A stretch of DNA of 38,318 nt from positions 1 through 38,318 of the forward strand of contig NJBI01000034.1 in the NCBI GenBank assembly GCA_005222975.1. The letters are read 5' to 3'. This DNA is from Promethearchaeota archaeon Loki_b31 (GTDB taxonomy: Archaea; Asgardarchaeota; Lokiarchaeia; Sigyniarchaeales; SOKP01). Below are positions 17,975 through 37,449 of the stretch, one piece after another; the stretch's first letter is position 1; each line of letters begins with the position of its first letter. The position numbers and the translations under genes were made by a program. The notes beneath the pieces were generated by a model. That model ran no database searches. It had not been told where the DNA came from and was given only the letters and a program-made list of their open reading frames with translations.

Positions 17975-18140
17975 TGCAGAGAAGGGGATTTGAACCCCTG
18001 TAGACCTATGTCAATGGATCTTGAGTGTGGTTCAAAAACGCAAAAGATTACGGTTTTTGAAAATGTCCATCACCGGTTGCCGCTTTATTATTCCTTATTT
18101 AGAAATAATTCTTGCTTTGACCTGGCTTGGTTATCTCTGC
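17975..18140 (-). tRNA. tRNA-Leu(CAA) with two introns (21/22: 18076-18116, 41 nt; 32/33: 18025-18064, 40 nt)
   Basis: Acceptor GCAGAGA/TCTCTGC+A, T-arm AGGGG-TTCAAAT-CCCCT, long variable arm; removing both introns gives an 85-nt tRNA with ATGGA-CTCAAGA-TCCAT, colinear with the intronless tRNA-Leu at 34135. Confidence 0.9.
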
Positions 18141-18226
18141 TCTATTTTAATTCTTTATTATCTCTTATATATTTTGTAATAATAAGTATAAATTAATAAT
18201 TTTTTAAAGATGAGGTGATATTCGCA

Positions 18227-18454
18227 TTAAGTCATAAAGAACATAAATACAAAAAGGACCGCCATCATCCCGAACATAAAAATCATTTGAATTCTTCCTT
18301 TTTTCTTTTTCTTTTTTTCATGGGTGAAGTAATTATCTCGACAAGTTTGACTGCAAAACTGTTTATCCGTTGGCATTGCCTTTCCGCATATTGGGCAATG
18401 ACCATGTGGCCCCCATTTCTTTTTAATTTGGTCTTTCCATGAAGCTTGAGACAT
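18227..18454 (-). CDS. DUF2116 family zinc-ribbon membrane protein
   Basis: PHGHCPICGKAMP....FCS..C, lysine run and C-terminal TM helix; start moved to ATG at 18454 (MSQASW). Confidence 0.82.
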   Translation of the reverse strand: MSQASWKDQIKKKWGPHGHCPICGKAMPTDKQFCSQTCRDNYFTHEKKKKKKGRIQMIFMFGMMAVLFVFMFFMT

Positions 18455-18535
18455 TTTTATTTCATCTATATATTGACTGTTTAGAACTATGTTAGTAAAA
18501 TGTTGCAAATTAAAATAATTTATTATAAAAAAATC

Positions 18536-19243
18536 TTAGTTTGATATAGTAGTACCAATAATCTCTTTTTCATTATCCCAAAATTTTTTAAATTGAATTA
18601 ACTTTTTTCCTGAAATTACCATTATTGTAATTTTACTTCTTTTTAATATTTGTAAAGAAACTGCATCAAAAATCCTATACTCTCCCGCAGCTGCTTGCTT
18701 ATCTCCTGATGAATGTAAAATTATATCTCGTAATTTATCATAAGAAAGATTTTTAATCAATTTTGCATCTTTAAAGAGTTTTGGATCTTTATCAAATATA
18801 CCTTCTACATCTGTGAGGATTATTAACTTGTTTGCATTTATATATTCTGCAACTTCGATAGCTACGGAAGTTGTCGATTGACCCAGTTGTAAACCACCCA
18901 TTACTACAATTTTATGAGTTAGAATCGCAATTGATAACTCTTCAATTGATTTTGGTACTTGGGGGTAAGCAAATTCTTTCAAATTGGAAATAATTAATCG
19001 AGAATTTATACGCGAAATATCAATTCCAATCAAATCACATAAAGCTTCATTCTGAGTAAAATCTCTTATAACATCAATGTATTCCCTCGCTATTATTCCT
19101 CCTCCACATACAATAACAATGGAATCGTATTCTTTATCATTTTTAACTATATTACAAAATTCAGTAATTCTTTTAGAATTTATCGTTTTCCCTTCAGAAA
19201 ATAAAAGAGAACCCCCAATCTTTATCACAATATTCTTATTCAT
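18536..19243 (-). CDS. pyrH: uridylate kinase
   Basis: VIKIGGS, VCGGGIIAREYI, D.IGI..SR.N, GQSTTSVA, TDVEGIFDKDP. Confidence 0.93.
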   Translation of the reverse strand: MNKNIVIKIGGSLLFSEGKTINSKRITEFCNIVKNDKEYDSIVIVCGGGIIAREYIDVIRDFTQNEALCDLIGIDISRINSRLIISNLKEFAYPQVPKSIEELSIAILTHKIVVMGGLQLGQSTTSVAIEVAEYINANKLIILTDVEGIFDKDPKLFKDAKLIKNLSYDKLRDIILHSSGDKQAAAGEYRIFDAVSLQILKRSKITIMVISGKKLIQFKKFWDNEKEIIGTTISN

Positions 19244-19318
19244 AATAAAATATAATTGATTTTTATTTTTTAATAATATATATATAATTGAATTGATAAA
19301 TTTGATTATTCAAGGAAC

Positions 19319-20272
19319 ATGGCTAATACGACAAATAAAATTACAGTTGAAGTTCCACATCGTATTTCTGGCTTTTTTGAGATTGTAGATAAAAAAAATG
19401 GCAATATAATTAACAACCCTGAACAAATTGGTTCTCGAGGAGCCGGATTTAACGTAAGTGGGAAAGGAAGAACAGATTTATCATTTGAAAACTTAGAAAA
19501 GGGTAAAGAAAGTTGTTGTACAATTTATATTAATGAAGAAAAGTTTGATAAAAAAGCAGAAACAACATGTTTTATCTTTGATTATGTTAAAAAATTGATA
19601 AAAGTTCCCGTTAAAGTTAAAATTGAACATTTTTTCGATTTACCCGTTGGATGCGGATATGGCGCAAGTGGTTCAGGTGCATTAGGAACGATTTTTGGGT
19701 TGAACAAACTATTTAATCTACACTTAGACGATTTAGAAAACGGAAAGATTGCCCATATTGCAGAAGTTGTAAAAAAAACAGGATTAGGAACCGTTTGTGG
19801 TCAATTAGGAAGAGGTCTATGTATATTAAAGGAACCGGGTTATCCTTGCACCTATGAGCGCTTAAAAAGTCCTAATGATCTTTTAGTGATTTGTGGTTCT
19901 TTTGGAACGATACTTACAAAATCAATCTTATCAGATGCAAGTTTGAGTTCAAAAATAAAACGAGCTGGTAAGATTGCCTTAAATAAATTAATGTTAGAGC
20001 CTAATTATAGAAATTTTATTAAGGTTTCATTTCAATTTGTAGAAGAGTCAGAGATATTGAATATTTTACATTTAGATAGAATTAGGGAATTATTAAATGA
20101 TTTACATAAATTAAATATCATAGGTGCCAGTATGAATCAATTAGGACGCTCAATTTATATATTTTGCAAAAAAGGAAAAGAAAACGAGGTTCTTGAAGTT
20201 TTAAATACATATAAACCAGAAATATTAATATTTAAATTAACTATTAATAACAGAAATACAATCTCTTTTTAA
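19319..20272 (+). CDS. pantoate kinase (GHMP family)
   Basis: VPHRISGFF, GSRGAG, LPVGCGYGASGSGALG, AHIAEV..KTGLGTV, ASMNQLG. Confidence 0.88.
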   Translation: MANTTNKITVEVPHRISGFFEIVDKKNGNIINNPEQIGSRGAGFNVSGKGRTDLSFENLEKGKESCCTIYINEEKFDKKAETTCFIFDYVKKLIKVPVKVKIEHFFDLPVGCGYGASGSGALGTIFGLNKLFNLHLDDLENGKIAHIAEVVKKTGLGTVCGQLGRGLCILKEPGYPCTYERLKSPNDLLVICGSFGTILTKSILSDASLSSKIKRAGKIALNKLMLEPNYRNFIKVSFQFVEESEILNILHLDRIRELLNDLHKLNIIGASMNQLGRSIYIFCKKGKENEVLEVLNTYKPEILIFKLTINNRNTISF

Positions 20273-20277
20273 AACAA

Positions 20278-21102
20278 TTAATTTTTATTTTTTGCAGAAT
20301 TTAATGATTTTGATTTTATTGTAGCTGATTCTACTGCTCTAATCATGGTTGCTCTCAATTTAGCTGATTCAATTTCATGTATTGCAGTGATCGTCGTTCC
20401 TCCAGGAGTGGCTACCATATCTTTCAGTTCCCCGGGGTGTTTACTTGTTTCTAATAATAATTTTGCAGAACCTAAAACAGTTTGAGCAGCTAATTTTAGA
20501 GATACGGCTCTAGGTAAGCCCATTTTCACGCCACCATCAGCTAGTGCTTCAATAATAATAAAAATATAAGCGGGACCGCTTCCAGATAGTCCTGTAACCG
20601 CATCTAAATGAGTTTCATCTAATTCTACTACTATACCAACAGCATTAAAAAGTTTTTTAACAAAGTCTATTTGGTATTCTTTGATGTTTTCGTTGTATGC
20701 TATTGCCGTTGCTGCAGCACCTATAAGTGCTGGAGTGTTTGTCATAATTCTTATTAATCCTATTGGATTATTAATAAATTTATTAATGTGAGTAAGAGAA
20801 ATTCCCGCTGCTATAGAAATAATTGTTTGTTGTTCTGTAATTATTGGCCCAATTTCACGCAAAACGGTATCTATTACTTGAGGAATAACAGCAATTAAAA
20901 CATATTTGGATGAGCACACTAAATCCGCATTACTTTCAGCAATCTCAACATTAAATTCCTTAGAGCGTATATTTCTTTTGTCTTCATCTATATCAAAAAT
21001 AATAATTTCATTTTTATCAAGAGTATTCGTAGAAATTAATCTCTTTAATAAGGCAGAACCGATTTTTCCAATACCGATAATTCCTAATTCTTTATTGTAC
21101 AT
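20278..21102 (-). CDS. proC: pyrroline-5-carboxylate reductase
   Basis: GIIGIGKIG, ISIAAG, TGLSGSGPAY, LKDMVATPGGTTI. Confidence 0.96.
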   Translation of the reverse strand: MYNKELGIIGIGKIGSALLKRLISTNTLDKNEIIIFDIDEDKRNIRSKEFNVEIAESNADLVCSSKYVLIAVIPQVIDTVLREIGPIITEQQTIISIAAGISLTHINKFINNPIGLIRIMTNTPALIGAAATAIAYNENIKEYQIDFVKKLFNAVGIVVELDETHLDAVTGLSGSGPAYIFIIIEALADGGVKMGLPRAVSLKLAAQTVLGSAKLLLETSKHPGELKDMVATPGGTTITAIHEIESAKLRATMIRAVESATIKSKSLNSAKNKN

Positions 21103-21188
21103 AAATTTAGTTTATTAATGTAACCAAAATAATATTATTAAATAGAACGATTATTTAAAAAATTTAAAAGGCGTTTCTCAGATAATAT

Positions 21189-21713
21189 TCAATTAAATAC
21201 GTCATTAAGATTATTTGCTATAAATTCAGAGGATCTAATTCCGAAATCGTTCCATAAATTAATTTCTAAAATAATTTTATCTTTCACTTTATTAATTTGA
21301 TGAAACTTATTATATTGAAAAAATTGAATCCCTTTTTTATATTTATGAGGTAATTCTACAAAAATAGAAGCAATTCCTTTTTTTTTTTGAATGGTTAAGT
21401 AGTTTATTAATATTTTTTTTCCAATATGGTTTTTCCTGAAATTTGGATTTACATATATTAAATAGAGATTCGTTTTAGGCACAATTTTTTCTAATGAATC
21501 AACCTTGTGATTTTTTTCTTCCGCAACTAAAATTCCCACTAAAAGTTTCTTATAATATGCCGTTAATGTAAAATATTTGCGATTTAAAAAATTGATTTTA
21601 AAATCTTCAATTAGTTGTAAAAATTCTTTAGCACACAGATTCAAGTCAATTAAATCTTCTTTATTTGCTTCTTTTATACTGATATCTGAATCGTCTATTT
21701 GAAATTCTCTCAT
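21189..21713 (-). CDS. GNAT family N-acetyltransferase
   Basis: Motif A IYVNPNFRKNHIGKKIL and motif B GIQFFQYNKF. Confidence 0.75.
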   Translation of the reverse strand: MREFQIDDSDISIKEANKEDLIDLNLCAKEFLQLIEDFKINFLNRKYFTLTAYYKKLLVGILVAEEKNHKVDSLEKIVPKTNLYLIYVNPNFRKNHIGKKILINYLTIQKKKGIASIFVELPHKYKKGIQFFQYNKFHQINKVKDKIILEINLWNDFGIRSSEFIANNLNDVFN

Positions 21714-21720
21714 AAACGGC

Positions 21721-22461
21721 TTAATTGTATAATTCCGATTTTAATTCTTCAATAAGATAACCTTTAATCATTCCATGATTTCTGTCATATCCTTCACAAA
21801 CCACGCTCCTAACGCCAATTAAATCGGGTGAGATCTCTTTTATTTTAGGGATTGAATCTTTCAATAAGTTTCCAGCAAGAGCAACTTCAAGGTTTAACTC
21901 TTTTGATTTATCTCTAAACTGTTTTAATTGTTTAACATTTAAAAAATCGAACAAATTTTTTCCATCTTTGATGTATGTATCAAGCATTGCAATATCAGAA
22001 CCAGATTTTTCTGCGATAGTGGGGATGGATAAAAAATCTGGTGATGAATTCATCCGTATTCTATCAGCATAACCCGCTACGACGATCTTTATATCCATAT
22101 CATAATCTTTTACAGCTTTTACAACTTTAGTCATTAAATTAATGCCTTCTTTTTCGGTATTTGGACCTTTAAGCCCCACTTTAATAATATCTGCCCCCGA
22201 TACTGCAGCACCTAGAGCAGCTAACGAAGCTGAACCAGGTAAATTAGGAAAATCTCCAATAGTTGCGCTCAATAATTGAGAGCTATTAGGAGGAATTAGG
22301 CTTTTCATTTTTTTTATAATCCAAGGAAAATTTGCTCCAAGAGAACCTTCGCTTGGATTTTTGCAATCGATATAATTCACATCTTTATATTGAACTATAA
22401 CCTTTGCTTCCTCAATATCTTTAGGGCTTATCAACAATTTGATTCTTTTTTGCATAATCAC
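21721..22461 (-). CDS. mfnB: (5-formylfuran-3-yl)methyl phosphate synthase (methanofuran biosynthesis)
   Basis: LLISP...EA, IDCKNPSEGSLGANFPW, SATIGD, IKVGL, AGYAD, MLDTYIKDG, ALAG, IGVRSVVC. Confidence 0.93.
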   Translation of the reverse strand: MIMQKRIKLLISPKDIEEAKVIVQYKDVNYIDCKNPSEGSLGANFPWIIKKMKSLIPPNSSQLLSATIGDFPNLPGSASLAALGAAVSGADIIKVGLKGPNTEKEGINLMTKVVKAVKDYDMDIKIVVAGYADRIRMNSSPDFLSIPTIAEKSGSDIAMLDTYIKDGKNLFDFLNVKQLKQFRDKSKELNLEVALAGNLLKDSIPKIKEISPDLIGVRSVVCEGYDRNHGMIKGYLIEELKSELYN

Positions 22462-22630
22462 TCAAATTTAAATGTAATTTTGAATGGAACGATTAGAATT
22501 TACTTATTTAATAAATAAATGCGTTTAATAATAGATCTTTTATATTATCAAGCTAAAATATTTTTTTATTTTTAGATATTTGGAATTAAATTAAAACATA
22601 TAAAGAACAAATGATATAAAAATTTAAATT

Positions 22631-24661
22631 CTTAAGTTCATAAGTTATTCTTTTTTTTAATAATTTTATTCTTTTTTCTTTAAGCTTTCATTCGACATAA
22701 TTCTATTTTATTAACGTATTAAATTCTACATAAAGGCTGCTTCCATTGTAGTATTACTGTTTCATATTACGGAAATAGGTGTCTTTATATTTCTTTCACG
22801 ATGTATACACTAACTATTATAATTAACTAAAAACAATTGCCTCAGTAAAAACACTTTATTTCGCTAAATTTAAATAATTGTATACACTAATATATATTAT
22901 ATGGTTCATTTAGTAAAAAAAAGAATTAAAGGCAATATATATCTTTATCTCGAGGAGACTGCTCGGATCAATGGGAAACCAACACGTGTTTGGCAAAAAT
23001 ATTTAGGTCCTGAAGCAAAAATGAAGGAACAGACGGAATTCCAATTAAAACCGGAATTCACGGTTGCAACTCTCGATTTTGGATTTCCACTAGTTCTAAT
23101 CCAACTCATAAAACAACTCGAACTTATCGAAATAATCAACGATTGCACGGGAAAACGAGAACAAGGGTTATCTATTGGACACTACATCGCGTTGGCGGTC
23201 ATAAATCGCTGTGTAAAGCCCACTTCTAAGGCGAAAATCCGCCGCTGGTTTGAAAATACGGTACTTTTCAAGGAATTCCCGCCCATTGAGACTTATTTAG
23301 ATTCGATGGCGTATACTAACCATTTCAAATATTTAACACCGGACGTCATTGATAAGATCGAAACACGAATCCATTTAAAACTTTTAAAAGATTTTGGGGT
23401 GGACATGAAGACTTTGTTCTACGATCCTACCAATTTCTTCACGTACATCAATCCTAAGCCCGGTATGAAACTTCCCAGGCACGGTCATTCTAAAGAAGGG
23501 CGAAATACGCTCAATCTTGTCGGGCTGACGCTTTTTTGTACTAAAGATGGTGCTTTACCCGTGATGCACGAGGTTTATCCTGGAAACGTTCAGGACGCCC
23601 GACTATTTCGTGAAGAAATATCTCGATTACTTGAAAGACTTAAACGCATTGGTGTGAACGCTCAGGAATTGTGCTTGGTGTTTGACAAGGGAAATATCTC
23701 TGAAGATGCGTTTGAGCAAATAAACAAATCTGGCATTCGCTTTGTTGCGTCAATCCGTCCCAGCACGCAAAAAGACCTCGTTGCTTTAACGCCTATAGAT
23801 TTCACGTTGGAAGAATTACCTAACGGAAAGGAAGTAGGCGTGCTTGAGTACGATCGCACGATTTACGGTCCAAACGACAGGCTCCTTGTAGTGTATAACC
23901 CGCGGCGGAGGGAATGGCAAGAAAAAAACCTTAAAGCGAAGCTTGAGAAACGCATTTCCGACGTTAACACCTTTTTTAAAGAGCGGCTAAACGTTAAGAA
24001 ATGGAGAGACCTGAATGCTGTTGAAAAAAAGATTCGGAATATTATTAAGACTAAGAAATACCTCAATTTGCTTAATTATTCGGTTTCTGGTACACACGCT
24101 AATGTTAAATACTCGATTAAAATAAACAAAAAAGCCTTAAACGCCCATTTAGATACTCTTGGTAAGAGTTTTCTTCTTTCGAATCATCCTGACATGATGC
24201 CTCTCGAAATAGTTTGGCTATATCGGCAGCAATACACAGTGGAGCGGGCGTTTAAGTATATAAAAACACCATCCATGCTCTCTGTCAAGCCCATGTTCCA
24301 TCGAACGGACGATAGTATAAGAGGTCATTTATTCACTTGCGTTCTTGGCCTATTACTCTTGACTCTTCTAGCTCGAAAGGTTCAGAACGAATTCAAGAAA
24401 ATAAGCCTTCCGAAAATTGTAGAAACACTCTCAGAACTCGAATTAGCCGTAATAAAGTACGAGGGATCCAAGCAAACTATTAAAAAAATTGTCGATGTAT
24501 CAAAAGAAGCAGAAGAATTGTCCAAATTTTTGGAGCTCGAAGCTTACATCTAAATTAGATTTTTGTACCCCCTAACTTTTTTGTCACTCCTTTAAAGGAT
24601 GACATCTTTTATAGCTACAGAGAGAAAAAGTTATGAAGAAGTAATAACTTATAAACTCAAG
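22631..24661 (+). mobile_element. complete IS1634-family insertion sequence
   Basis: Imperfect terminal inverted repeats CTTAAGTTCATAAGTTATT (22631-22649) and AATAACTTATAAACTCAAG (24643-24661), 17/19 match; flanking 5-bp direct repeat AAATT (22626-22630, 24662-24666). Confidence 0.92.
22901..24553 (+). CDS. IS1634-family DDE transposase
   Basis: KKRIKGNIYLYL..TARINGKP...WQKYLG, FYDPTNF, GHSKEGR, VFDKG, YRQQYTVERAFKYIK, IRGHLFTCVLGL; more GC-rich than its flanks. Confidence 0.95.
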   Translation: MVHLVKKRIKGNIYLYLEETARINGKPTRVWQKYLGPEAKMKEQTEFQLKPEFTVATLDFGFPLVLIQLIKQLELIEIINDCTGKREQGLSIGHYIALAVINRCVKPTSKAKIRRWFENTVLFKEFPPIETYLDSMAYTNHFKYLTPDVIDKIETRIHLKLLKDFGVDMKTLFYDPTNFFTYINPKPGMKLPRHGHSKEGRNTLNLVGLTLFCTKDGALPVMHEVYPGNVQDARLFREEISRLLERLKRIGVNAQELCLVFDKGNISEDAFEQINKSGIRFVASIRPSTQKDLVALTPIDFTLEELPNGKEVGVLEYDRTIYGPNDRLLVVYNPRRREWQEKNLKAKLEKRISDVNTFFKERLNVKKWRDLNAVEKKIRNIIKTKKYLNLLNYSVSGTHANVKYSIKINKKALNAHLDTLGKSFLLSNHPDMMPLEIVWLYRQQYTVERAFKYIKTPSMLSVKPMFHRTDDSIRGHLFTCVLGLLLLTLLARKVQNEFKKISLPKIVETLSELELAVIKYEGSKQTIKKIVDVSKEAEELSKFLELEAYI

Positions 24662-24707
24662 AAATTAAATAATTATTATTAAATATCAAAAAAATCATGA
24701 ATTTATT

Positions 24708-25238
24708 ATGTCCCCAAAAGAAATCACAAAAGTAGACATAACAAACGAAGTATTTAGAGAGCCATTTGAAGTTATTAAACAAATATCCTTAAATTTAGAC
24801 TGGTTAAAATATACTAAAGTTATTCAAACATTTGTAATGGAAGATCGAAGATTGAACCTCTCTTTAGAAAATCAAGGATCCAGTTATTTCAAGGGCAAGG
24901 TTGTTTGGATTGGCAATAAAAAGGATGATAGCGAAGGAACTATCTTTTGCGTTGATACTAAAACGGAATTAAAACAGATTAATCCTACTGCCGAAAATAC
25001 TGAAAACGTTGTGCTTGATATAAAAAAGGAAATTATTAGAATATCTACTGCATCCAAAACGAAATGTACAGTTTGTGGAAAGAACATTGAAATTTTCGAT
25101 GAAGTGACTGGTTGTCCAATTTGTGAAGCGAGAGCCCATAAAGGACATTTCATAGATTGGGTTAGAATGAAACATGCTTGTCCAGTTTGTAAAAAGTCTT
25201 TAAATGTATCAAGTTCTGGTGTGATTTTTATTGATTAA
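24708..25238 (+). CDS. protein with C-terminal RING-H2-like zinc finger
   Basis: CTVC-x12-CPIC-x4-HKGH...W...CPVC. Confidence 0.75.
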   Translation: MSPKEITKVDITNEVFREPFEVIKQISLNLDWLKYTKVIQTFVMEDRRLNLSLENQGSSYFKGKVVWIGNKKDDSEGTIFCVDTKTELKQINPTAENTENVVLDIKKEIIRISTASKTKCTVCGKNIEIFDEVTGCPICEARAHKGHFIDWVRMKHACPVCKKSLNVSSSGVIFID

Positions 25239-25978
25239 CTTAGATTAAACTTTCTTATTTTATCAATATTAATAGTTCCATCGTGTAAAGCGGTCCCTAT
25301 TAGAACTCCTGAGAAATTATGCTTATTATATAATTTGATATCATCCATATCCTTAATTCCTCCTCCAACTATAATATTTCCCTTAAATTCATCCCTTATT
25401 TCTTGATATAACTGCGGGATTCCACCTAACTTTTGTCCTACTTTATAAAGATCAAGTAGAATTATTTTTTCAACACCTAAATTTTCAATCTTCTTTATAA
25501 TATCAATTAGTTTCTGGTTTTGTAATTCTTTTATATTGGTTTGAATCAGTTCGTTGTACATATCTATACTTACAATGGTTTTATTCTTACCATAAACTTT
25601 TAAACATTTAGAAATAACTTTTAAATTTTTTATCGTCTCTAATCCTAAAATTAATGTATCTATGTTATATTTGGAATATATTTTAACATTCTTTATAGAC
25701 AAAATTCCTGGATCAATAATGATTTTAACATTTGGTATGGTTAAAATTTTTTCTAATAACTTAAAATTAGGCTCTTTTTTGATTATTGCATCTAAATCGG
25801 CAATATATATATCATTGATTTCATAATCATCTTTCAATTTTTTAATTATTTTTATTGGATCACAGTTATTTATCCAAACTGCCTTTAACGGTTTATATTT
25901 CTCTCGTTCTCCTTTTATGGCATGGACTGCTTCAGAATTTAACACATCAATTACGGGTATGATCTTAAAACTACTCAT
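25235..25978 (-). CDS. HisA/HisF-related TIM-barrel protein
   Basis: IIPVIDV....VHAIKGEREKYKP, YIADLDAI, LGLET, VSIDM, LLDL.KVG, VGGGI, LIGTALH. Confidence 0.88.
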   Translation of the reverse strand: MSSFKIIPVIDVLNSEAVHAIKGEREKYKPLKAVWINNCDPIKIIKKLKDDYEINDIYIADLDAIIKKEPNFKLLEKILTIPNVKIIIDPGILSIKNVKIYSKYNIDTLILGLETIKNLKVISKCLKVYGKNKTIVSIDMYNELIQTNIKELQNQKLIDIIKKIENLGVEKIILLDLYKVGQKLGGIPQLYQEIRDEFKGNIIVGGGIKDMDDIKLYNKHNFSGVLIGTALHDGTINIDKIRKFNLS

Positions 25979-26142
25979 CTTTTCGACTTACAATTTTTAT
26001 TTTTTCTAAGACAAAATCAACAAATTACCAATATGAAATACCCTTTTTTTTTTTAAATAGTGATTAATTAATTATTAAATAGTTTTATTTTTATAGTATT
26101 AATTCTAAAATTATCTTTGAATAAACAAACCTTTTTAAAATA

Positions 26143-27867: not shown

Positions 27868-27950
27868 ATAAAACTTCTTCTAAGATATCTTTTATAATAA
27901 TTTTGGTTTCTAATTCATAATTAGATAAATTTAATTTATAAAAAGAAACA

Positions 27951-28886
27951 ATGAGACAAGTTGACATTGTCGGATTAGGGGAAATTGTTTTAGATTGGGT
28001 TACTGAAATACCACACTTTCCAAAACCTGACGAGAAAATTGATGCATTAAGCGAGAATTATTTCCCGGGTGGAGTTACAGCAAATTATTTGGTAGCTACT
28101 GCAAGATTAGGTGGTAAAAGTGGATTTATAGGTGCAGTTGGAGATGATTCTTACGGCGATTATTTAATTGAAGACTTTGTTAAAGAACATGTAGATACGA
28201 CCTATATTAAAAAAATAGTAGACAAGAAAACACCAGTCAATTTCATATTTGTTGCTAAAGGAGAAAAGACTATAATCCAATCACCTCATATGCAAACTAC
28301 TAAAATAGAGGGTAATGATTTAAATGAAGCTTACATAGCAAATTCTACACTTTTACATACTACAATTATTCATCAAAAAGTCACAGAAAAAGCCATCGAA
28401 ATTGCTAAAAAAAATAATGTTAAAATTAGCATAGATCTAGAATCCCAAATTGCCCTAAGAGGTTGGAATAATTTGAAAAAAGTGCTTTTAAAAGCTGATA
28501 TATTGCTTCCAAATAAGGAAGGAGCAAAGTCAATAACAAACAGTAATAAACCTGAAAAAGCGGCTGAAATTTTAGTGAAAAAAGGGATACCAATTGTTAT
28601 TATTACGTTAGGAAGTAATGGCGTATTAATAACTACCAACGAATTTCAAAAAAGGATACCTACATATGATATAAACAATATAATTGACACTGCTGGGGCT
28701 GGAGATACGTTCAACGGTGCATTTTCTTTAGCTTATTGGATAAAAGGTTGGGATTTGAAAAAATCCTGTAAATACGGTAATGCTGCAGCTTCTTTGAAGA
28801 TCCAAAAATTAGGTGCGAGAACTGGCATGCCTAAAGAAAAAGAGTTGCTAGATTTCTTAAAGAAGAATGATGATACTTTCTTATAA
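27951..28886 (+). CDS. PfkB family carbohydrate kinase
   Basis: PGGVTAN...ARLG...GAVGDD..G, PNKE, ITLGSNG, DTAGAGDTFNGAF. Confidence 0.93.
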   Translation: MRQVDIVGLGEIVLDWVTEIPHFPKPDEKIDALSENYFPGGVTANYLVATARLGGKSGFIGAVGDDSYGDYLIEDFVKEHVDTTYIKKIVDKKTPVNFIFVAKGEKTIIQSPHMQTTKIEGNDLNEAYIANSTLLHTTIIHQKVTEKAIEIAKKNNVKISIDLESQIALRGWNNLKKVLLKADILLPNKEGAKSITNSNKPEKAAEILVKKGIPIVIITLGSNGVLITTNEFQKRIPTYDINNIIDTAGAGDTFNGAFSLAYWIKGWDLKKSCKYGNAAASLKIQKLGARTGMPKEKELLDFLKKNDDTFL

Positions 28887-28913
28887 AGTTTATAGGTTTA
28901 ATAGTAGATTTCT

Positions 28914-29351
28914 TTATGAATAAATAACACTTATATTTTTAAAATTTTCGCTACTGATTAGAACATCTAACTTTTCTAAAATCATATCTGAGGTAAGTTG
29001 AGTATTCGGTTGATTAAATGGCCAAATACCAATTAAAATATCTCCTAGTTTTTTTACATTCCCAATTAAAAAACCTTCCTTTTTTCCATCTAATAAAGAT
29101 GTGTAGAGAATAACGATATAATAATTAAAATTATAATTTATAGCTACATCTCCACTTTTTATTACTTCTCGAATGTTTTGAAAATTTATTACATTTTGAC
29201 GCTTTTGACTTAATATTTTTAGAGACGAAAAATATTGAGAAGGAATATTAATCGGTTTATCAGAGATTATGCTTTTAAAAGTTAATGAATACGATTCATT
29301 TTTATCTCCTTTAGTCCCCTTAAAAATTACATTATAAAATATTGCACTCAT
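28914..29351 (-). CDS. hypothetical protein
   Basis: 145-aa ATG-initiated ORF; no recognised motif. Confidence 0.65.
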   Translation of the reverse strand: MSAIFYNVIFKGTKGDKNESYSLTFKSIISDKPINIPSQYFSSLKILSQKRQNVINFQNIREVIKSGDVAINYNFNYYIVILYTSLLDGKKEGFLIGNVKKLGDILIGIWPFNQPNTQLTSDMILEKLDVLISSENFKNISVIYS

Positions 29352-29420
29352 TATCTCTTTTTTAATATTAAAATAAAATAAAAAAAATGCAAATGAACTA
29401 TCGTTACTATTATTATTTTA

Positions 29421-29765
29421 TCATTTTTTATATGGTTTCTTCATCATCCCTTGTTGAATGATAATATTTTCTTCAGGGAAGCCCAAGTCAATTAAAAATT
29501 TTTTCAACTTGAACTTGTGGTCGCCTTGAAGTTCGATTAAATTTTCTCTAACAGTTCCTCCAGAAGCACATTTCTTTTTGGCTTGCGTAAGGATATCCTT
29601 TAAGTTTGCGTCTATATTTCCTTCGAAGGTGATAACTGTAACCACACGCCCCCATTTCCTTCGATCGTTAGAGATAATAATTTGTTGTTCATCTGCGCTT
29701 AAACTATCGCATATACATAGGTCTTTCGGAAAACTACATACCGGACAAATGTCTTCTTCTTTAAT
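29421..29765 (-). CDS. sui1: translation initiation factor aIF-1 (SUI1), probable ATT start
   Basis: Frame extends upstream of the track ORF: (I)KEEDICPVCSFPKDLCICDSLSADEQQIIISNDRRKWGRVVTVI...KKKCASGGTV....IELQGDH; an in-frame TGA lies four codons above ATT at 29765. Confidence 0.9.
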   Translation of the reverse strand: MKEEDICPVCSFPKDLCICDSLSADEQQIIISNDRRKWGRVVTVITFEGNIDANLKDILTQAKKKCASGGTVRENLIELQGDHKFKLKKFLIDLGFPEENIIIQQGMMKKPYKK

Positions 29766-29992
29766 ACTCCTTTTTCACAACCTTTATTATTGAAACTTAT
29801 TAAAATACAGTACTAAAAAATAATAGAACTAAATCTTATAAAAACCTTTTTTTATTTTGTTTTTGTATAATTTTAAAAATGTTAAGTTTTTATAAGGAGT
29901 TGATTAATTTGGTTTTTAGGTTTTATTATTAACAACACTATAAAAATAAATTCTTATTTAATATAATTAAAAAAAATAATTCATGAAAAAAA

Positions 29993-30517
29993 ATGATGAG
30001 TTCATGGATTTTTAAAGTGATCGTAGCAGGAGCAGGTGGTGTGGGAAAAACTGCTATGGTGACTCGATATTGTACAGGAAAATTTGAAGAAGGCTATAAG
30101 ATGACTATAGGTGCGGGATTTCACACAAAGTCAGAAGTCCTTGACACAGGAGAGTCCGTAAAAATGCAATTATGGGACTTCGCAGGAGAAAAACGCTTCC
30201 GAGAGCTTTTACCAGACTATTGTAAGGGTGCTAGTGGAGCTTTTATTTGCTTTGATATAACGGATTACGACACTTTCAGAGAAATTCAAGGTTGGCTAAA
30301 AATTATTCGCAAAAAAGCAGGTTTTGTACCTATTATTCTTATGGGTATGAAGTGGGATTTATCGAACCACGAAGTGGATTTCGAAATCGCAAATGAATAC
30401 TCCCAAAATGCTAAATGCAATCAATGCGTTTTCACTTCTTCAAAAGAAAATATAAACATAAACGAATCGTTTCAAGCCATGGCAAAGTGGCTTATATTTT
30501 ATGCAAGTCAAGCGTAA
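29993..30517 (+). CDS. Rab/Ras-like small GTPase
   Basis: G1 GAGGVGKT, G2 YKMTIGAGF, G3 WDFAGE, G4 variant MKWD, G5 TSSK; no CAAX motif. Confidence 0.92.
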   Translation: MMSSWIFKVIVAGAGGVGKTAMVTRYCTGKFEEGYKMTIGAGFHTKSEVLDTGESVKMQLWDFAGEKRFRELLPDYCKGASGAFICFDITDYDTFREIQGWLKIIRKKAGFVPIILMGMKWDLSNHEVDFEIANEYSQNAKCNQCVFTSSKENININESFQAMAKWLIFYASQA

Positions 30518-30831
30518 TTTACCCTATTTTTAGAAATTGCCATTTTCCCGTCAAAATAAGAAGTAGAGCCGTTTGATGACGGCTTTAGATTATAAGAAGA
30601 TTTACTCTCTCAGAAATATGCCAATTGAGTCAATATACCCGAGAATAATAAGTAAATAAAGAAAAAATAATTAAGGAGTCAATTTCTTAGTTTTAATGCA
30701 TTCTTAAAAAACATTTTCACTAAGGAAATTTGAAAGAATTCATATTCGTAAACTTTTTTAATTTTATGACTTAGAGATCATTATATATGATAAAAAAGTT
30801 TAATATAAAATTAAATGGAGATTAGAGATAT

Positions 30832-32439
30832 ATGTGTGCTCAGTTAAGTGGCGTCCCTATAATTATTTTAAAAGAAGGTACAGAAAGAAAACAAGGAAAG
30901 GACGCCCAAAAAAATAATATAGCTGCAGCTAAAGCGGTAGCAGAAGCAGTAAGAACAACACTTGGGCCTAAAGGTATGGATAAAATGCTTGTTGATTCTT
31001 TAGGAGATGTAACAATAACGAACGATGGTGCAACGATCTTAGACACTATTGATATTGAACATCCAGCGGCTAAAATGATAGTCGAAGTTGCTAAAACGCA
31101 AGATGATAAAGTTGGTGATGGAACTACTACGAGCGTTATCATTTCTGGAGAATTATTGAACCTTGCCCAAGAGTTAATGGACCAATCAGTTCACCCGACG
31201 ATAATAATCAGAGGTTATAGAAAAGCTTTAGTAAAGTCTAAGGAAATATTGAAAGAACTAGCTACTAAAATTGATATTAACGATAAAGAGACTTTATTGA
31301 AAGTTGCAGGAACTTCAATGAATAGTAAATTAATTACGGGAGTTAAAAGTCATTTTGCAGATATTGCTGTTAAAGCGGTAAACCAAATAAAAGAAAAACG
31401 TGGAGAACGTATTTTAATCGATTTGGATCAAATTCAAATGATAAAAAAAGAGGGAAAAAGTCTAATAGATACAAAAATCATAGATGGAATTATAGTGGAT
31501 AAGGAAATTGTACATCCTATGATGCCAAAATCTCTCAAGGATGCAAAAGTTGCATTAATTAACTCCTCTCTTGAAGTTCAGAAAACTGAATTTGATGCCG
31601 AGATTAGAATTCAAACACCTGATCAAATCAATAAATTCCTTGAAGAAGAAGCGAAAATGCTTAAATCCCGCGTTAACAAATTAAAAGAAGTTGGAGTCAA
31701 TGTTGTGTTTTGTCAGAAGGGTGTTGATGACAAGGCACAAAACTTTCTTGCCCAAGAAAACATCATAACGATTCGTAGAGTTAAGAGATCTGATATGGAA
31801 AAACTTGCTCGAGCTACAAATGCAAAAATAGTCAACAACATCTTCGATATTTCAGCTGCGGACTTAGGTAAAGCAGGAAAAGTAGAAGAAAAGAAAATTG
31901 GGGATGAAAATATGATTTTTGTATCAGAGTGTATTGATCCTAAGGCTGTGAGTATATTAATAAGGGCTGGGATTGAACATGTTGTAGATGAAGCTGAAAG
32001 AATGTTCGATGATGCATTATCTGTAGTAAAAGCAGTAATTGAATTGCCTTACATTTTACCGGGGGGTGGAGCCTCTGAAATTGAGTTAGCTAAACGATTA
32101 AGAGCTTATGCCCGTTCAATAGGAGGTAGAGAACAATTAGCAATTGAAATCTATGCTACCGCCCTAGAGATAATTCCTAAAACATTGGTTGAAAATGCGG
32201 GGTATAATCCTGTTGATTTGATTGTAGAATTACGCTCAAAACATGAATCAGATGAAGGAAACGCGTACGGTATTAATATTGATACTGGTAAACCTGATGA
32301 TATGATGAAATTGGGTGTTATTGAACCATTAATGGTATTAACTCAAGCTATTCAATCAGCAACCGAAGTTGCTTCTATGATTTTAAAAATTGACGATGTA
32401 ATTGCTGCTTCAGGACTTTCGAAACACTCTGAAGATTAA
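30832..32439 (+). CDS. ths: thermosome (group II chaperonin) subunit
   Basis: [43 protein letters not shown]. Confidence 0.97.
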
Positions 32440-32482
32440 TTTTTATTAATTTTTTATTTTTATTAGATCATCTATATTTTTG

Positions 32483-32944
32483 TTAAAATTTATTCAATTT
32501 TTTAAATTCAACTCCCCATGAAAATTTTGAGAGTATTAAATCAGCGTAAGTATGAAATTTTGTAATATAAAGCGCTGCCGCTAATGCCTCAACAGAGCTC
32601 AATTTTTCCCATTTGCCATAATTTACTGGGTTTGTGGCGATAAGTGGCGGTAATCTTCTACTGTTTTTTAAGTTAAAGTTTTTCAAATTGAAAATTTTTT
32701 TCCAAGAGCAATCCACGACAATAAGACCGTACTTCAAAATAAGCTCCCTATCATTATCATTTATTACTTTTTTAGAAAAGGGATTTAAAAAAATAGCATT
32801 ATAGTTTCTTCCTTTAATTTTAGACACGATTTTTAGCAAATTGAACCTTGCTAATTTTAAGGCTGTGCATTTTTTCTTATCACATTCATTAAAATGGAGA
32901 CAAAACAGTTTTGGAATAGATTCTTCCAAATTAGATTTAATCAT
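32483..32944 (-). CDS. tsr3: SSU rRNA aminocarboxypropyltransferase Tsr3 (DUF367)
   Basis: ECDKKKCTALKL, VVDCSW, RRLPPLIATNPVNYG...LSSVEALAAAL, FSWG.EF. Confidence 0.93.
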   Translation of the reverse strand: MIKSNLEESIPKLFCLHFNECDKKKCTALKLARFNLLKIVSKIKGRNYNAIFLNPFSKKVINDNDRELILKYGLIVVDCSWKKIFNLKNFNLKNSRRLPPLIATNPVNYGKWEKLSSVEALAAALYITKFHTYADLILSKFSWGVEFKKLNKF

Positions 32945-33935
32945 ATTTAAAACTAGTTAATACATTTACCGATTTTATAAAGTTTTCAGTAGTTCGCTCA
33001 GTCCCAATTATTTTCATTATTGAAAATATGATATTTCGGGATTCACACATAATTGGAATTCCCCCGTATGTCAATGTGAAGAGACCTATAAAAGAAATCT
33101 CTTCCATGTTTAAAGTCCCTTTCACTTCAGAAAACTTTAATTTTCCAGAAGGACAAGTAATAATTCCGTAAAAATTTTCAGGATCTTGCCCAGAAATTGC
33201 TACATAACATAATAACTCACCGATTGAACTGCTTTCAGATTCTTCTTTCATTTTTTGAAAAGCAACATTAGCACTGGCTGAAAATGCCTCAACCGAAATT
33301 GGTAAATTTCGGCCACTAACTTCCCTAGCATCTAAAGTTAAGCCTGTTGAGCATACAAGACTATACCTTATATATATAGGGTTTTGTATTGAGTCCAAAA
33401 CATAACTTATTGCTGGCAATAGATTAGTAGAATCAAATTTTTCTGGAGAATAAGATGCGAAAGGAACTTCAGACCCCATACCAAAGAGGTAAATCGCACT
33501 TCGTACTTTGTTTGAAAAATATTCAAGATCTCTCTCAGTTTCATTACTACTACCAAAAAAATCTCCTAATTTCTGTTTTATATAGTACATAGAACTTGCT
33601 AAATTATCTGCATCTAATGGCCATTCTTTGTGATAATCATGAACAATTGTTAAGAGAGTTTGATTTATCCTAATCGTTATTAAACAAACCTTATCAAAGA
33701 ATGAAAACGAAATAACTTGATCCTTAATATTCATATCTTCCCAACTCTCTTCGCTCGCAGAAAACGCTGCTGAAGCTAAACTAGTAATACGATTAGGATT
33801 TATCTCAATATCACTTTTCCTTCCAATTTTAGCTATAGAAAGCCCATTCAAATCACATAAGATTACCAAAATTGTACCTTGAGATGCCCTCAAGATTGAA
33901 GTCAAATATTTTATTAACGAATCTCTTACACTCAT
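32937..33935 (-). CDS. tandem roadblock/LC7-domain protein
   Basis: Two copies of the roadblock pattern (ILCDLNGLSIA...ITSLASAAFSASE; LVCSTGLTLDA...AFSASANVAFQ). Confidence 0.7.
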   Translation of the reverse strand: MSVRDSLIKYLTSILRASQGTILVILCDLNGLSIAKIGRKSDIEINPNRITSLASAAFSASEESWEDMNIKDQVISFSFFDKVCLITIRINQTLLTIVHDYHKEWPLDADNLASSMYYIKQKLGDFFGSSNETERDLEYFSNKVRSAIYLFGMGSEVPFASYSPEKFDSTNLLPAISYVLDSIQNPIYIRYSLVCSTGLTLDAREVSGRNLPISVEAFSASANVAFQKMKEESESSSIGELLCYVAISGQDPENFYGIITCPSGKLKFSEVKGTLNMEEISFIGLFTLTYGGIPIMCESRNIIFSIMKIIGTERTTENFIKSVNVLTSFKYD

Positions 33936-34134
33936 AAAAAAACCTAACTTTTTTATCTAACCTTATAATTCTATCTGCTTTAATAACAATAATCTTAATT
34001 CTTAAATATTTCTTACTTTTATTTTCAACTATCGATTTAATCGCAAATAAAATTCCTCCTTTAATTAACTAAAAAATTTATTTACTTTTTCGCATTTTAA
34101 ATACTAAAATAACTACAATATTTGTTATTTTAAT

Positions 34135-34219
34135 GCGGGAATTGCCAAGCCTGGTCTACGGCGCTGGACTTAGAATCCAGTCTCAGAGGAGTTCGAGGGT
34201 TCAAATCCCTCTTCCCGCA
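34135..34219 (+). tRNA. tRNA-Leu(TAG), intronless
   Basis: GCGGGAA/TTCCCGC+A acceptor, anticodon arm CTGGA-CTTAGAA-TCCAG, long variable arm, GAGGG-TTCAAAT-CCCTC. Confidence 0.97.
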
Positions 34220-34297
34220 TTTGTTGTATTATTCTTTAGATAATTTTTATATTTATAAATGACTCTCTTGGTAAAATAAAAAAAGAAATATGGGTAA

Positions 34298-36544
34298 TTA
34301 CTTCTTAAGTTTCCTTTTGACAAGGATTAAAGTTACAGCGAGAGTTACTCCGATTAGAGCGATTAAGTTATATCCAGGGATTCTAGGAGGGATTGGTGGT
34401 TCACTCGATATTTGTTTGATCACCTGCACTTGAGCATTTCCCATCCCTGCGGTACTATTCACATAGAATATGATGGTCACGATGCCATCCGTAAGTTTAT
34501 CCCATTCGTTTTGATCGATAGTTCCCGTAAGACCGCCCGCGGTGATGTTCGTTGCCCCACCATCAAGCGTATACCAAATAGTATCATAAAGCCCCGTAAT
34601 TGAGATATCATACTCAGGAGCTGATGTTCCGAAAATGTCACTGTCGGAAGGTGAACTAATGGTAATCTCTGGAGGAGCAGTGTTTACCGAGAAATATCTT
34701 AGATTCGATTCGTACATCGTTCCTAGTGTATCATTTCCAAACACTTGAATCGAGTATACTCCATCTGAAGGCATTGGAACGGTTGTATTTCCTAAAATTG
34801 TTCTATTATTTGCGCCATTTAATGAATATCCTTTCCAATCTAAATTAGTTGTATTAGCATAACTCAATAGTAATCCCTCGTTCAAATTATCCCCGATATT
34901 GTAGTCTGGATCCCATGAATAGCCCACAGCATCAACATAACATGAACCAATGTTAGCCCAGTCTGCATTTATATTCATGGTTCCAATGTTACTTACAGCA
35001 GTTGTAAAATTACCATCGTCCACTCGTAAAACTCCATCAATGTACCAGTCATAGGTATCTGTAACAGCATCGAAAATCATTTTATGATGATACCACTGGT
35101 TAGCGACATAGGATTGAACGATATTATCTTGCATGTCTAAATAATCACCATCTTGCATTTTAAGCTTGCCAACACCAGTTCCTAAAGTTCCTTCATAAAA
35201 TAAATAATCAATCATATTAGATCCTGATGCAGAAGTACTCCACCACCATTCAATCGTACCAGATTGTTGCGGTGAAGTAAAATGATTACGTGCTTCAGCA
35301 TTGCCAGCCGTATTTGCATCATAGATGCGTAGAACTTTATTATGCCCCTGGAAATTGTTGACAATATCCACATAACAATTACTCTGAATACTGTTTGTAG
35401 AGTCGACATATGCAATATCTGTTCTTGAAGTCCCATCCATTTCATTTTCAAATCCATATGTCGCGGGATAATAGCCACTCATCGGTTCCGTGTACGTTTT
35501 ATTTTCAGGAGTTACAATATTAAGGTAGGGATTTGTATCCACTGTAAAGTATCTTAGATTTGATTCGTACATTGTGCCCATCGAATCGTTTCCGAACATA
35601 TGAATCGAGTGGAGTCCATCATCAAGCACCGGGATGGTAGTATTTCCCATAATAGTCTTATTAGTTTGCCCATCTAAGGAATATCCTTTCCAATCCAAAT
35701 TGGTTGTGTTTTCATAGCTAAATAAAATTCCCTCATTCAAATTATCTCCAACATTATAATTTGAATCCCAAGAGTACCCAACAGCATCCGTATACATATG
35801 AAAATTATCATATCGCCAATTTTGATGAATAATAATATGTGAAACATTGGAGTGTGATGAGATCATCTGAAAATCGCCAAATTGAACACCATTTACGAAA
35901 AATCTCCATTTATACTGAGCTAAACCATAGTGATTGCCAGTCCCACATTCAAATTGAATCCTTAGGTGATACCATTGATTGTTATTTGCGGTATAGGAAA
36001 CTGGATACCACTCCGTACTATTCATGAATTGAAATGTATTATCCATCATCCGAACTCCTGCGATTGCGTATTGATTAAAAGTGCCACTTTTCAGATGCCA
36101 TGCACTTTCTTGACTAACATCTGTAGTTCTTGCCCAAAATTCGATGGTTCCATATTCTTGAACGGACTTAAAATATTGATTGATGTTATTATTATCTCCA
36201 TAAGTATTTCCTTTATCCATATGAAGCACTTTCTTATGGCCGTCCAATTCGGTAATTATCTCATTAAACATAATTGGATCACCTTTTACTTCCTCCCATT
36301 CTTCTGGTATTGTGCCATCTTCATCATTTTCAAATCCATATGTTGCAGGGTAGTAACCGCTCATTGGCTCGGTATATGTTTTATTTTCAGGAGTGACGAT
36401 GGTTATTTCATCAGCGCTCGATTTTGGAGTCTCAAGCTTATATTGAGGTGTAAAACTTTGATTTAGCGTCCCAGCTACCGTAAGCGAAAGAATTAGGATA
36501 AGAAGGCTGATATTAATATTAGCATGTGACTTTTTTATTTTCAT
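34298..36544 (-). CDS. secreted/surface protein with two tandem ~294-aa beta-rich (LamG/ConA-like plus Ig-like) units and a Loki-CTERM-like sorting tail
   Basis: N-terminal signal/TM segment; PENKTYTEPMSGYYPATYGFEN repeated 882 nt apart; GTIE.W and NQWYH motifs; C-terminal IPGYNL-TM-KRKLKK. Confidence 0.88.
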   Translation of the reverse strand: MKIKKSHANINISLLILILSLTVAGTLNQSFTPQYKLETPKSSADEITIVTPENKTYTEPMSGYYPATYGFENDEDGTIPEEWEEVKGDPIMFNEIITELDGHKKVLHMDKGNTYGDNNNINQYFKSVQEYGTIEFWARTTDVSQESAWHLKSGTFNQYAIAGVRMMDNTFQFMNSTEWYPVSYTANNNQWYHLRIQFECGTGNHYGLAQYKWRFFVNGVQFGDFQMISSHSNVSHIIIHQNWRYDNFHMYTDAVGYSWDSNYNVGDNLNEGILFSYENTTNLDWKGYSLDGQTNKTIMGNTTIPVLDDGLHSIHMFGNDSMGTMYESNLRYFTVDTNPYLNIVTPENKTYTEPMSGYYPATYGFENEMDGTSRTDIAYVDSTNSIQSNCYVDIVNNFQGHNKVLRIYDANTAGNAEARNHFTSPQQSGTIEWWWSTSASGSNMIDYLFYEGTLGTGVGKLKMQDGDYLDMQDNIVQSYVANQWYHHKMIFDAVTDTYDWYIDGVLRVDDGNFTTAVSNIGTMNINADWANIGSCYVDAVGYSWDPDYNIGDNLNEGLLLSYANTTNLDWKGYSLNGANNRTILGNTTVPMPSDGVYSIQVFGNDTLGTMYESNLRYFSVNTAPPEITISSPSDSDIFGTSAPEYDISITGLYDTIWYTLDGGATNITAGGLTGTIDQNEWDKLTDGIVTIIFYVNSTAGMGNAQVQVIKQISSEPPIPPRIPGYNLIALIGVTLAVTLILVKRKLKK

Positions 36545-36915
36545 TTTAGTTCACGCTTCAAAATTTTTGTCTTAAATGAATTAAAGTATATCTAGATAAG
36601 GCTATATTTATACTTGACTCTCCTAATAAAACCCCTCGTTGTTGTTGAAAAACTAAATAAGGAGCTAAGAAGGTAGAAAGGGGATTCCAAAGATAGATTA
36701 AGAGATTAATATTATCGAAAATTAACTTCAGCGAAAATTCAAAATGCACAAATTAATATTAATATCCAAAATTTTTAGCAATATACAATCCCCCTCCTTT
36801 TCGCAATTTATATTATAAAAAAATTTAAAATCAAGCGTTAATTAGAAAAATATATTTAGAATCGTTTTTGTTCAATTTTAAGAATTAGTTTGATATAAAC
36901 GAAAATAAAAAGTAG

Positions 36916-37047
36916 GCCTTCGTAGTGTAGTACGGCCAAGCTTTCCTTAAAGGAAAGGGCTTCGCATGCTAGGCTTTCACCCTGGTGACAATACGGACCA
37001 AATCGGATCGCATCATTAGCCGGGTTCGAATCCCGGCGAAGGCACCA
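36916..37047 (+). tRNA. tRNA-Glu(TTC) with two introns (21/22: 36940-36963, 24 nt; 48/49: 36990-37019, 30 nt); CCA encoded
   Basis: GCCTTCG/CGAAGGC-ACCA, CTAGG-CTTTCAC-CCTGG, CCGGG-TTCGAAT-CCCGG; both inserts fold as bulge-helix-bulge motifs. Confidence 0.92.
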
Positions 37048-37088
37048 TCAGAAATTGGTGGAAAGCATTGGAAATCAACCAAATCTGT

Positions 37089-37249
37089 GCCTCCGTAGCT
37101 CAGCTAGCAAGTACAGAGCACTGTTTCGGTGTGCTTGGCTAAGTAGAACAATGTAAAATTGTATCAAAAGCACTCGGCTAAACGGTGATTTATCACTGTT
37201 CCGAAAGTTAACCGAGCGGTCCCATGTTCGATCCATGGCGGGGGCGCCA
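37089..37249 (+). tRNA. tRNA-Asn(GTT) with three introns (18/19: 37108-37142; 22/23: 37147-37168; 33/34: 37180-37206); CCA encoded
   Basis: Predicted spliced product GCCTCCG TA GCTC AGCTAGGTA GAGC A CTCGG CTGTTAA CCGAG CGGTC CCATG TTCGATC CATGG CGGGGGC G CCA (77 nt). Confidence 0.9.
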
Positions 37250-37447: not shown

Positions 37448-37449
37448 TC

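Follow-up and report, generated by a model that had tools for sequence, protein, structure and literature searches.

Seven introns outside the canonical position interrupt three of the four tRNA genes on a contig of a Loki-type Asgard archaeon

Asgard archaea were already suspected in 2018 of harbouring undetected disrupted tRNA genes, in a study that also assigned to them a tRNA-splicing endonuclease (EndA) of the (αβ)2 type with an L1 loop; relaxed HBh' variants of the motif called bulge–helix–bulge (BHB) are known substrates of (αβ)2 enzymes (Kaneta 2018; PMC5829648). Introns were later reported in 92–95% of the tRNA genes of three Asgard genomes (Valentin-Alvarado 2024; PMC11291895), and a preprint of October 2026 describes a motif-free census of 90 Asgard genomes with 129 intron gains and an enrichment of BHB motifs (bioRxiv 10.64898/2026.10.13.758758). 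The same preprint reports D-arm introns missed by tRNAscan-SE and two EndA paralogues, does not identify the route by which the introns arrived and gives 2.2 intervening sequences per gene for its focal families and 0.91 for the other Asgard families. Here, we describe a contig of Promethearchaeota archaeon Loki_b31 (NJBI01000034.1; the whole stretch of 38,318 nucleotides is referred to as the window) on which off-position introns interrupt three of the four tRNA genes. Since the intron richness of Asgard archaea, the repeated gains and the EndA type are all published, the contig represents a new example and not a new kind of system.

The genome is a metagenome-assembled genome (MAG) of 3.5 Mb that is 92% complete (labelled G000, with C-numbered contigs; relatives are labelled from G001 onwards), and 40 relatives were searched for orthologous tRNA loci. 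On the window, ARAGORN called a single tRNA, tRNA-Leu(UAG), at 34134–34220, and Rfam at the gathering threshold recognized only the same gene (34135–34219); relaxing the latter to E ≤ 10 added nothing except isolated T-arm matches at 17983–18000 (minus strand) and 37020–37036 (plus strand). Reading by hand revealed 7-nt complementary acceptor strands spaced 166, 129 and 158 nt apart, each beside an intact T-arm. When candidate BHB deletions were enumerated and the spliced products scored with ARAGORN, these loci gave tRNA-Leu(CAA), tRNA-Glu(UUC) and tRNA-Asn(GUU), respectively (Table 1). All three products form full canonical cloverleaves, and their scores of 116.5 for the 85-nt tRNA-Leu(CAA) (discriminator A73, CCA not encoded), 123.3 for tRNA-Glu and 120.9 for tRNA-Asn lie within the range of the intronless tRNAs of the genome (∼111–124). 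A contiguous gene from another genus matches spliced tRNA-Asn over 77/77 nt without gaps (92%). A genome-wide census found no further genes for Asn(GUU), Glu(UUC) or Leu(CAA). The system extends from the 3' end of the minus-strand tRNA-Leu(CAA) gene at 17975 to the encoded CCA end of the plus-strand tRNA-Asn gene at 37249. An earlier reading of the DNA, made without database searches (hereafter the sequence-only reading), had listed seven introns in three of four tRNAs, none of them at position 37/38, and all seven positions were reproduced exactly.

The search based on the BHB motif misplaced two junctions, that of Asn 22/23 by 2 nt and that of Leu 21/22 by splitting the intron in two around a 2-nt exon. 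All seven junctions were therefore fixed without recourse to a splicing motif, by comparison with uninterrupted genes of related genomes, which corrected both errors. A contiguous D-arm (GGTCAA/CGGCG, with the slash at the junction) in six congeners (G023, G001, G006, G004, G002 and G016) gives Leu 21/22 a unique placement. These six all retain an intron of different sequence at 32/33, a position that is occupied by differing sequences in eleven congeners and is empty in two (G022 and G019), in which the BLAST pieces abut. In tRNA-Glu, exactly 30 nt between GTGAC and CCGGG are absent in G002, G023 and G006, a clean 30-column indel that defines the 48/49 intron, and 11 of the order's 151 genomes, which have the contiguous D-arm GGCCAA/GCATGC, fix the position of 21/22. 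The tRNA-Asn introns (18/19, 22/23 and 33/34) are placed by a compact pattern present in 37 of the 151 genomes, several of which carry exactly the contiguous 31-mer predicted from the four exons; setting the second of these junctions at 23/24 would yield an identical spliced product with a poorer motif. The interrupted architecture itself recurs in at least four independently assembled MAGs. The remaining gene, tRNA-Leu(UAG), also lacks an intron at the loci of all 11 relatives compared.

Because the junctions were derived from comparison and not from the motif, their agreement with BHB geometry (an exon end of four helix and two bulge nucleotides, and an intron end of the same make-up) constitutes an independent test. 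In the raw precursor, six of the seven junctions combine a central helix of at least three of four pairs with an h' helix of at least 2 bp (P ∼ 2.5e-9), a combination found in 2.7% of 178,582 random placements, and shifting the junctions by any 1–5 nt leaves none or one of the seven with such a fit. The central helix is complete in four introns and has three of four pairs in the others (in Asn 22/23 only once the 18/19 intron is removed), in agreement with the mismatches that the sequence-only reading had noticed in several central helices. Across all seven, h' comprises 2–8 bp and h 0–2 bp, so that the strict hBHBh' form does not apply and the introns fall into the relaxed HBh' class, the exon-side helix being absent or at most 2 bp long. 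Pairing in the four BHB helices is 84–100% across 12 tRNA-Glu orthologs, with 90.8% of cells paired compared with 34–51% in slid registers. Exons are conserved across genera and the intron sequences differ.

The genome contains exactly two EndA loci, on contigs C13 and C79, encoding proteins of 200 and 201 amino acids that both match the N- and C-terminal EndA domains (PF02778 and PF01974). The EndA gene is 97–99% identical to that of MAGs labelled Promethearchaeota or Promethearchaeia. Over its full length, the α protein can be aligned with the Aeropyrum pernix catalytic subunit (PDB code 3P1Z, chain B; E = 3e-34), and it retains the Tyr/His/Lys triad, the His being the residue mutated in 3AJV. 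Its segment GISKPRLEYF stands without gaps opposite DVEKPRGADF of A. pernix, placing SKPR opposite the EKPR that contains Lys44 and Arg46. In the A. pernix enzyme these residues belong to the Crenarchaea-specific loop (CSL); cutting at non-standard positions requires Lys44, and grafting the loop onto a strict enzyme broadens its range (Hirata 2011; PMC3241643). In the β protein, an Asp occupies the position of the catalytic His of Methanocaldococcus jannaschii EndA. The best PDB matches of β are M. jannaschii and catalytic-type chains, and among its PDB matches there was no separately deposited β chain apart from a fused M. kandleri construct (PDB code 5x89). A full-length gene for the RtcB ligase is also present. 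The EndA type and specificity loop, which the sequence-only reading had singled out for checking, thus come out as two paralogues with the Lys and Arg of the loop present in α, and by these alignments the enzyme appears to be of the two-subunit (αβ)2 type with an L1/CSL specificity loop and not a strict homomer.

Very probably, then, the seven segments are genuine archaeal BHB-type introns of the relaxed HBh' class that are removed by protein-dependent splicing. The precursor would be transcribed with its introns included, whereupon the four exon nucleotides that immediately precede the 5' junction would pair with the four intron nucleotides that immediately precede the 3' junction, leaving two 3-nt bulges backed by the intron hairpin. 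A heterotetrameric (αβ)2 EndA is predicted to cut in both bulges, its α-subunit Lys/Arg loop permitting cleavage at any position, as in the crenarchaeal enzymes, and RtcB would then ligate the exons. An additional constraint may operate in tRNA-Asn. Its second exon consists of only 4 nt (37143–37146, G19–G22) flanked by the 18/19 and 22/23 introns, and the exon strand of the 22/23 motif spans the junction between exons 1 and 2. Because this motif needs the ligated exons and exon 2 is so short, we infer an ordered reaction in which the 18/19 intron is excised and its exons joined before the 22/23 intron is cut.

Several observations weigh against this assignment. Three of the central helices contain a mismatch, the Leu 21/22 motif is weak (three of four central pairs and 2 bp of outer helix) and a real exon-side outer helix is absent in all seven introns. 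In the 12 tRNA-Glu orthologs, double changes in the intron helices were no commoner than in shuffles, so that these helices are conserved rather than demonstrably compensated. Moreover, as the 2026 preprint also remarks, no Asgard EndA has had its substrate range measured (bioRxiv 10.64898/2026.10.13.758758). Some segments, above all Leu 21/22 and Asn 22/23 with their three of four central pairs and short or conditional motifs, might be retained as an enlarged D-loop or leave by a route other than EndA, and the preprint does note a minority of D-arm insertions without a canonical motif that are possibly not introns. We consider this very unlikely: the conserved geometry of G18/G19 and the D-stem would not survive an extra 22–41 nt in the D-loop, motifs of the relaxed HBh' form fall within the repertoire of (αβ)2 enzymes (PMC5829648) and the observed junctions outperform every shifted register. 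It is harder still to credit that the three loci are decaying pseudogenes with random insertions whose functional counterparts lie in the unassembled 8% of the genome. The incompleteness of the MAG and the roughly nine expected anticodons that are unaccounted for would leave room for such counterparts, but the exons are intact and yield complete tRNAs, the insertions fall exactly on BHB geometry, no other copy of these anticodons was found in the genome and the interrupted genes are kept in synteny in many congeners, some of them represented by MAGs that are 98–100% complete. Self-splicing finds no support either, as the introns are only 22–41 nt long and no Rfam intron family matched in the window; group I and group II introns need a ribozyme core of hundreds of nucleotides. 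Protein-dependent BHB splicing thus remains the explanation that we favour for all seven segments.

Comparison with relatives reveals differences in the presence of the introns. Relatedness was ranked by the identity of the flanking amino-acid kinase gene (96–97% for G017, G009, G021 and G005, 73% for G002 and G004, and 58–64% for G016, G001, G023 and G006), and presence and absence were compared without a tree. The intron at Leu 21/22 is confined to the closest clade and missing from all six readable outgroups; a gain is the simplest reading. The three tRNA-Asn introns are likewise taken as derived, because the compact gene is carried by five congeners and also by members of seven other genera, one of which belongs to a second family. 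The Asn 22/23 intron is missing from the close relatives G021 and G005, and genomes with flanking proteins that are 92–97% identical differ in their tRNA-Asn introns, of which congeners have between none and four. The Glu 21/22 intron, on the other hand, is present in all 12 congeners aligned and is nearly universal in the family. The outgroup comparison therefore points to gains within the genus, in line with the extensive gain in the lineage that the sequence-only reading had supposed, although some absences could possibly reflect loss through copying of spliced RNA. Further tRNA-Asn introns appear in congeners: G008 and G021 have one of 30 nt at 59/60, and G021 and G017 have one at 63/64 (read from the alignment and unscored).

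The source of the sequences was also considered. The seven introns show no cross-matches to one another and each is unique in the genome, in keeping with the earlier impression that they are unrelated; no similarity that would suggest origin by copying was found among them, among ten T-loop introns from other contigs (see below) or elsewhere in the genome. An 8-nt match of the Asn 18/19 intron to its own exon was equalled in 20 of 500 shuffles and, with seven tests made, is not significant.

The pattern extends to the whole genome. A census anchored on an intact T-arm and acceptor closure yielded 27 tRNA genes, and permitting one T-arm insertion added ten, uncertain precursors being read by hand. 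The resulting 37 genes comprise nine that are intronless and 28 that are interrupted; the counts are approximate, as several junctions are good only to 1–3 nt and one Cys-like gene on contig C87 was left out. ARAGORN finds 12 tRNA genes in its default mode and 22 when introns are allowed, and the Rfam matches above threshold number 22, so that these programs overlook 15 to 25 of the 37. About nine expected anticodons were not recovered in the census of this 92%-complete MAG. The introns number ∼37 in all. Seven in the anticodon loop are placed at 37/38 or can be reconciled with that position, and ∼30 (∼80%) are non-canonical, with ten occupying the T-loop, four interrupting 21/22 and the rest distributed over 7/8, 15/16, 22/23, 25/26, 28/29, 44–47 and further sites. 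The T-loop introns form a uniform group (29–31 nt each, at 58/59–59/60, with a perfect central helix and the T-stem as outer helix) that share no sequence with each other and interrupt the genes for Gln-UUG, Arg-GCG, Ala-GGC, Asp, initiator Met, Val-CAC, Arg-CCU, Lys-UUU, Lys-CUU and Val-UAC. Rather than mostly intronless or canonically interrupted tRNA genes and a strict homomeric EndA, the genome thus presents about three quarters of its recovered genes interrupted and an enzyme of apparently two subunits, which bears out the proposal of the sequence-only reading that tRNA introns are extensive in this lineage.

Some loci encountered in the census require comment. A free-ended brute-force tRNA search proposed acceptor-stem 'introns' that proved to be spurious, the loci reading as simple T-loop introns. 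On contig C59 (minus strand, reverse-complement positions 16401–16580, 180 nt; 34501–34681 in the plus-strand coordinates of ARAGORN), the tRNA-SeC with a 90-nt intron called by ARAGORN was outscored (100 versus 119), and the gene is better read as a tRNA-Ile with anticodon UAU and three introns, UAU being an unusual Ile anticodon. The Cys(GCA)-like gene at C87:100983–101099 (plus strand) combines an insertion of ∼45 nt in the D-region with a variable region of 11 nt, and its T-loop (TGCAAAT) is atypical.

Table 1. Location of the tRNA genes, their introns and associated features. Positions refer to the window unless a contig is named.
Feature	Position	Strand	Description
tRNA-Leu(CAA)	17975–18140	−	166 nt; exons 18117–18140, 18065–18075, 17975–18024
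Leu(CAA) intron 21/22 (D-loop)	18076–18116	−	41 nt; central helix 3/4, h' 2 bp, no h; relaxed BHB
Leu(CAA) intron 32/33 (anticodon loop)	18025–18064	−	40 nt; central helix 3/4, h 2 bp, h' 3 bp
tRNA-Leu(UAG)	34135–34219	+	85 nt; intronless
tRNA-Glu(UUC)	36916–37044 (with CCA to 37047)	+	Exons 36916–36939, 36964–36989, 37020–37044
Glu intron 21/22	36940–36963	+	24 nt; central helix 4/4, h' 7 bp, no h
Glu intron 48/49 (variable loop/T-stem junction)	36990–37019	+	30 nt; central helix 4/4, h' 6 bp with one A·C mismatch
tRNA-Asn(GUU)	37089–37246 (with CCA to 37249)	+	Exons 37089–37107, 37143–37146, 37169–37179, 37207–37246
Asn intron 18/19 (D-loop)	37108–37142	+	35 nt; central helix 4/4, h' 7 bp
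Asn intron 22/23 (D-stem)	37147–37168	+	22 nt; h' 5 bp; central helix 2/4 raw, 3/4 once 18/19 intron removed
Asn intron 33/34 (anticodon loop)	37180–37206	+	27 nt; central helix 4/4, h' 8 bp
748-aa open reading frame	34298–36544	−	Inside ∼2.5-kb segment between tRNA-Leu(UAG) and tRNA-Glu; context, not part of the intron system
T-loop intron genes	C2, C36, C42, C52, C55, C75, C83, C84, C94 (twice)		e.g. C94:30066–30169(+)

The sequence-only reading also raised an existing proposal that such introns block the targeting of tRNA genes by integrases, pointing to an accessory-looking gene just 3' of the one intronless tRNA. The insertion is real. The distance between tRNA-Leu(UAG) and tRNA-Glu is 2.7 kb in the contig, compared with a spacer of ∼145–245 nt in nine relatives (∼160 nt in the three that were aligned), and the difference is accounted for by a segment at ∼34240–36770 that is absent from the locus in relatives. 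Its sole long open reading frame (ORF), of 748 amino acids, has no Pfam match, contains internal repeats of 855–882 nt and belongs to a large multi-copy family of repeat proteins with up to 44 matches per genome, the best of which is 48% identical and none of which lies at this locus. On either side of the segment lies a copy of an imperfect direct repeat of 29 nt that consists of spacer sequence (34248–34276 and 36603–36631; 24/29 identical). Together with different insertions of ∼1.1 kb in the same spacer in two congeners, the inserted ORF gives some colour to the notion that introns are retained as a protection of tRNA genes against integrase-mediated insertion and that the accessory gene beside the only intronless tRNA illustrates the effect. 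We nevertheless regard the idea as unlikely, since neither an integrase nor a duplicated tRNA 3' end was found in or around the segment, the spacer repeat is not derived from a tRNA, the single tyrosine recombinase of the genome is on a different contig (C63) on which no tRNA was found, and the insertion lies just as directly upstream of the interrupted tRNA-Glu. A lone case is no test, and the insertion provides no evidence for or against protection.

Some further features of the contig may be recorded. CCA is encoded after tRNA-Glu (37045–37047) and tRNA-Asn (37247–37249) and after neither Leu gene; elsewhere in the genome, it also follows the Asp and Val-UAC tRNA genes. An ORF of 178 amino acids just downstream of tRNA-Asn (37326–37862) has no Pfam match and no tblastn counterpart at the loci of eleven relatives, so that synteny breaks on that side of the tRNA cluster as well, the contig ending at 38318. 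Adjacent same-strand ORF pairs in the window are separate complete genes according to Pfam. At 10990–11625 and 11641–12243 (both on the minus strand), a 211-amino-acid ThiI PP-loop protein without the usual N-terminal THUMP domain is encoded directly downstream of a protein with a CxxCxxCC zinc/iron-chelating domain.

The genus may have been caught in the act of tRNA intron turnover. We would suggest, tentatively and as a possibility that we rate below even, that the T-loop and Glu 48/49 introns are of the same class as putative ∼30-nt mini-introns of the protein-coding genes of this genome and that one insertion mechanism might serve both tRNAs and mRNAs. A strict hBHBh' scan of the window for mRNA mini-introns gave 77 and 91 strong matches on the two strands compared with 40–69 in shuffled sequence, which is uninformative in such AT-rich DNA.

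In summary, most of the tRNA genes of a Loki-type Asgard genome are hidden from standard annotators, as is evident here from junctions set independently of any motif. At least 37 genes were recovered, compared with 12 by ARAGORN (default) and 22 by Rfam, so that reports of 'missing tRNAs' in such MAGs are annotation artefacts, as the sequence-only reading had anticipated. Its interpretation holds for intron gain, for the EndA type and for the missing tRNAs, and the blocking of integrases gains no support here; existing knowledge of the origin of the eukaryotic splicing endonuclease is unchanged. Seven pinned introns, with differences in presence and absence among near-identical relatives, add a well resolved case to the published record of repeated Asgard intron gain under what is presumably a permissive two-subunit EndA, and the 4-nt exon of tRNA-Asn offers a concrete substrate with which to examine both ordered splicing and enzyme range.

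The closest described systems are the Asgard tRNAs of the 2026 preprint, which share with those of Loki_b31 multiple short and mostly non-canonical introns per gene, many of them D-arm introns overlooked by standard annotators, as well as repeated gains, unrelated intron sequences, BHB motifs at the junctions and two EndA paralogues. The present genome carries ∼1.0 intron per gene, unlike the focal families of the preprint and in line with its other families; neither Lokiarchaeia nor Promethearchaeota is mentioned by name in the main text of the preprint, and the ten T-loop introns form a uniform 29–31-nt class that is a further point of difference. The multi-intron tRNA genes of Thermoproteales (Sugahara 2008; Fujishima 2010) are similar in that a gene may contain as many as three introns, in the D-arm, the anticodon-arm, the variable region or the T-arm; their BHB motifs are relaxed, and their (αβ)2 EndA has a specific loop. 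In that order, however, related intron sequences recur across genes, a pattern that has been interpreted as transposition, whereas neither the seven introns nor the ten T-loop introns of the present genome share sequence with one another or with the rest of the genome. At the level of the enzyme, the nearest counterpart is the A. pernix EndA (PDB code 3P1Z), with which the α protein can be aligned from end to end with the catalytic triad and the equivalents of Lys44 and Arg46 retained, and alongside which, as in this genome, a second, non-catalytic paralogue is present.

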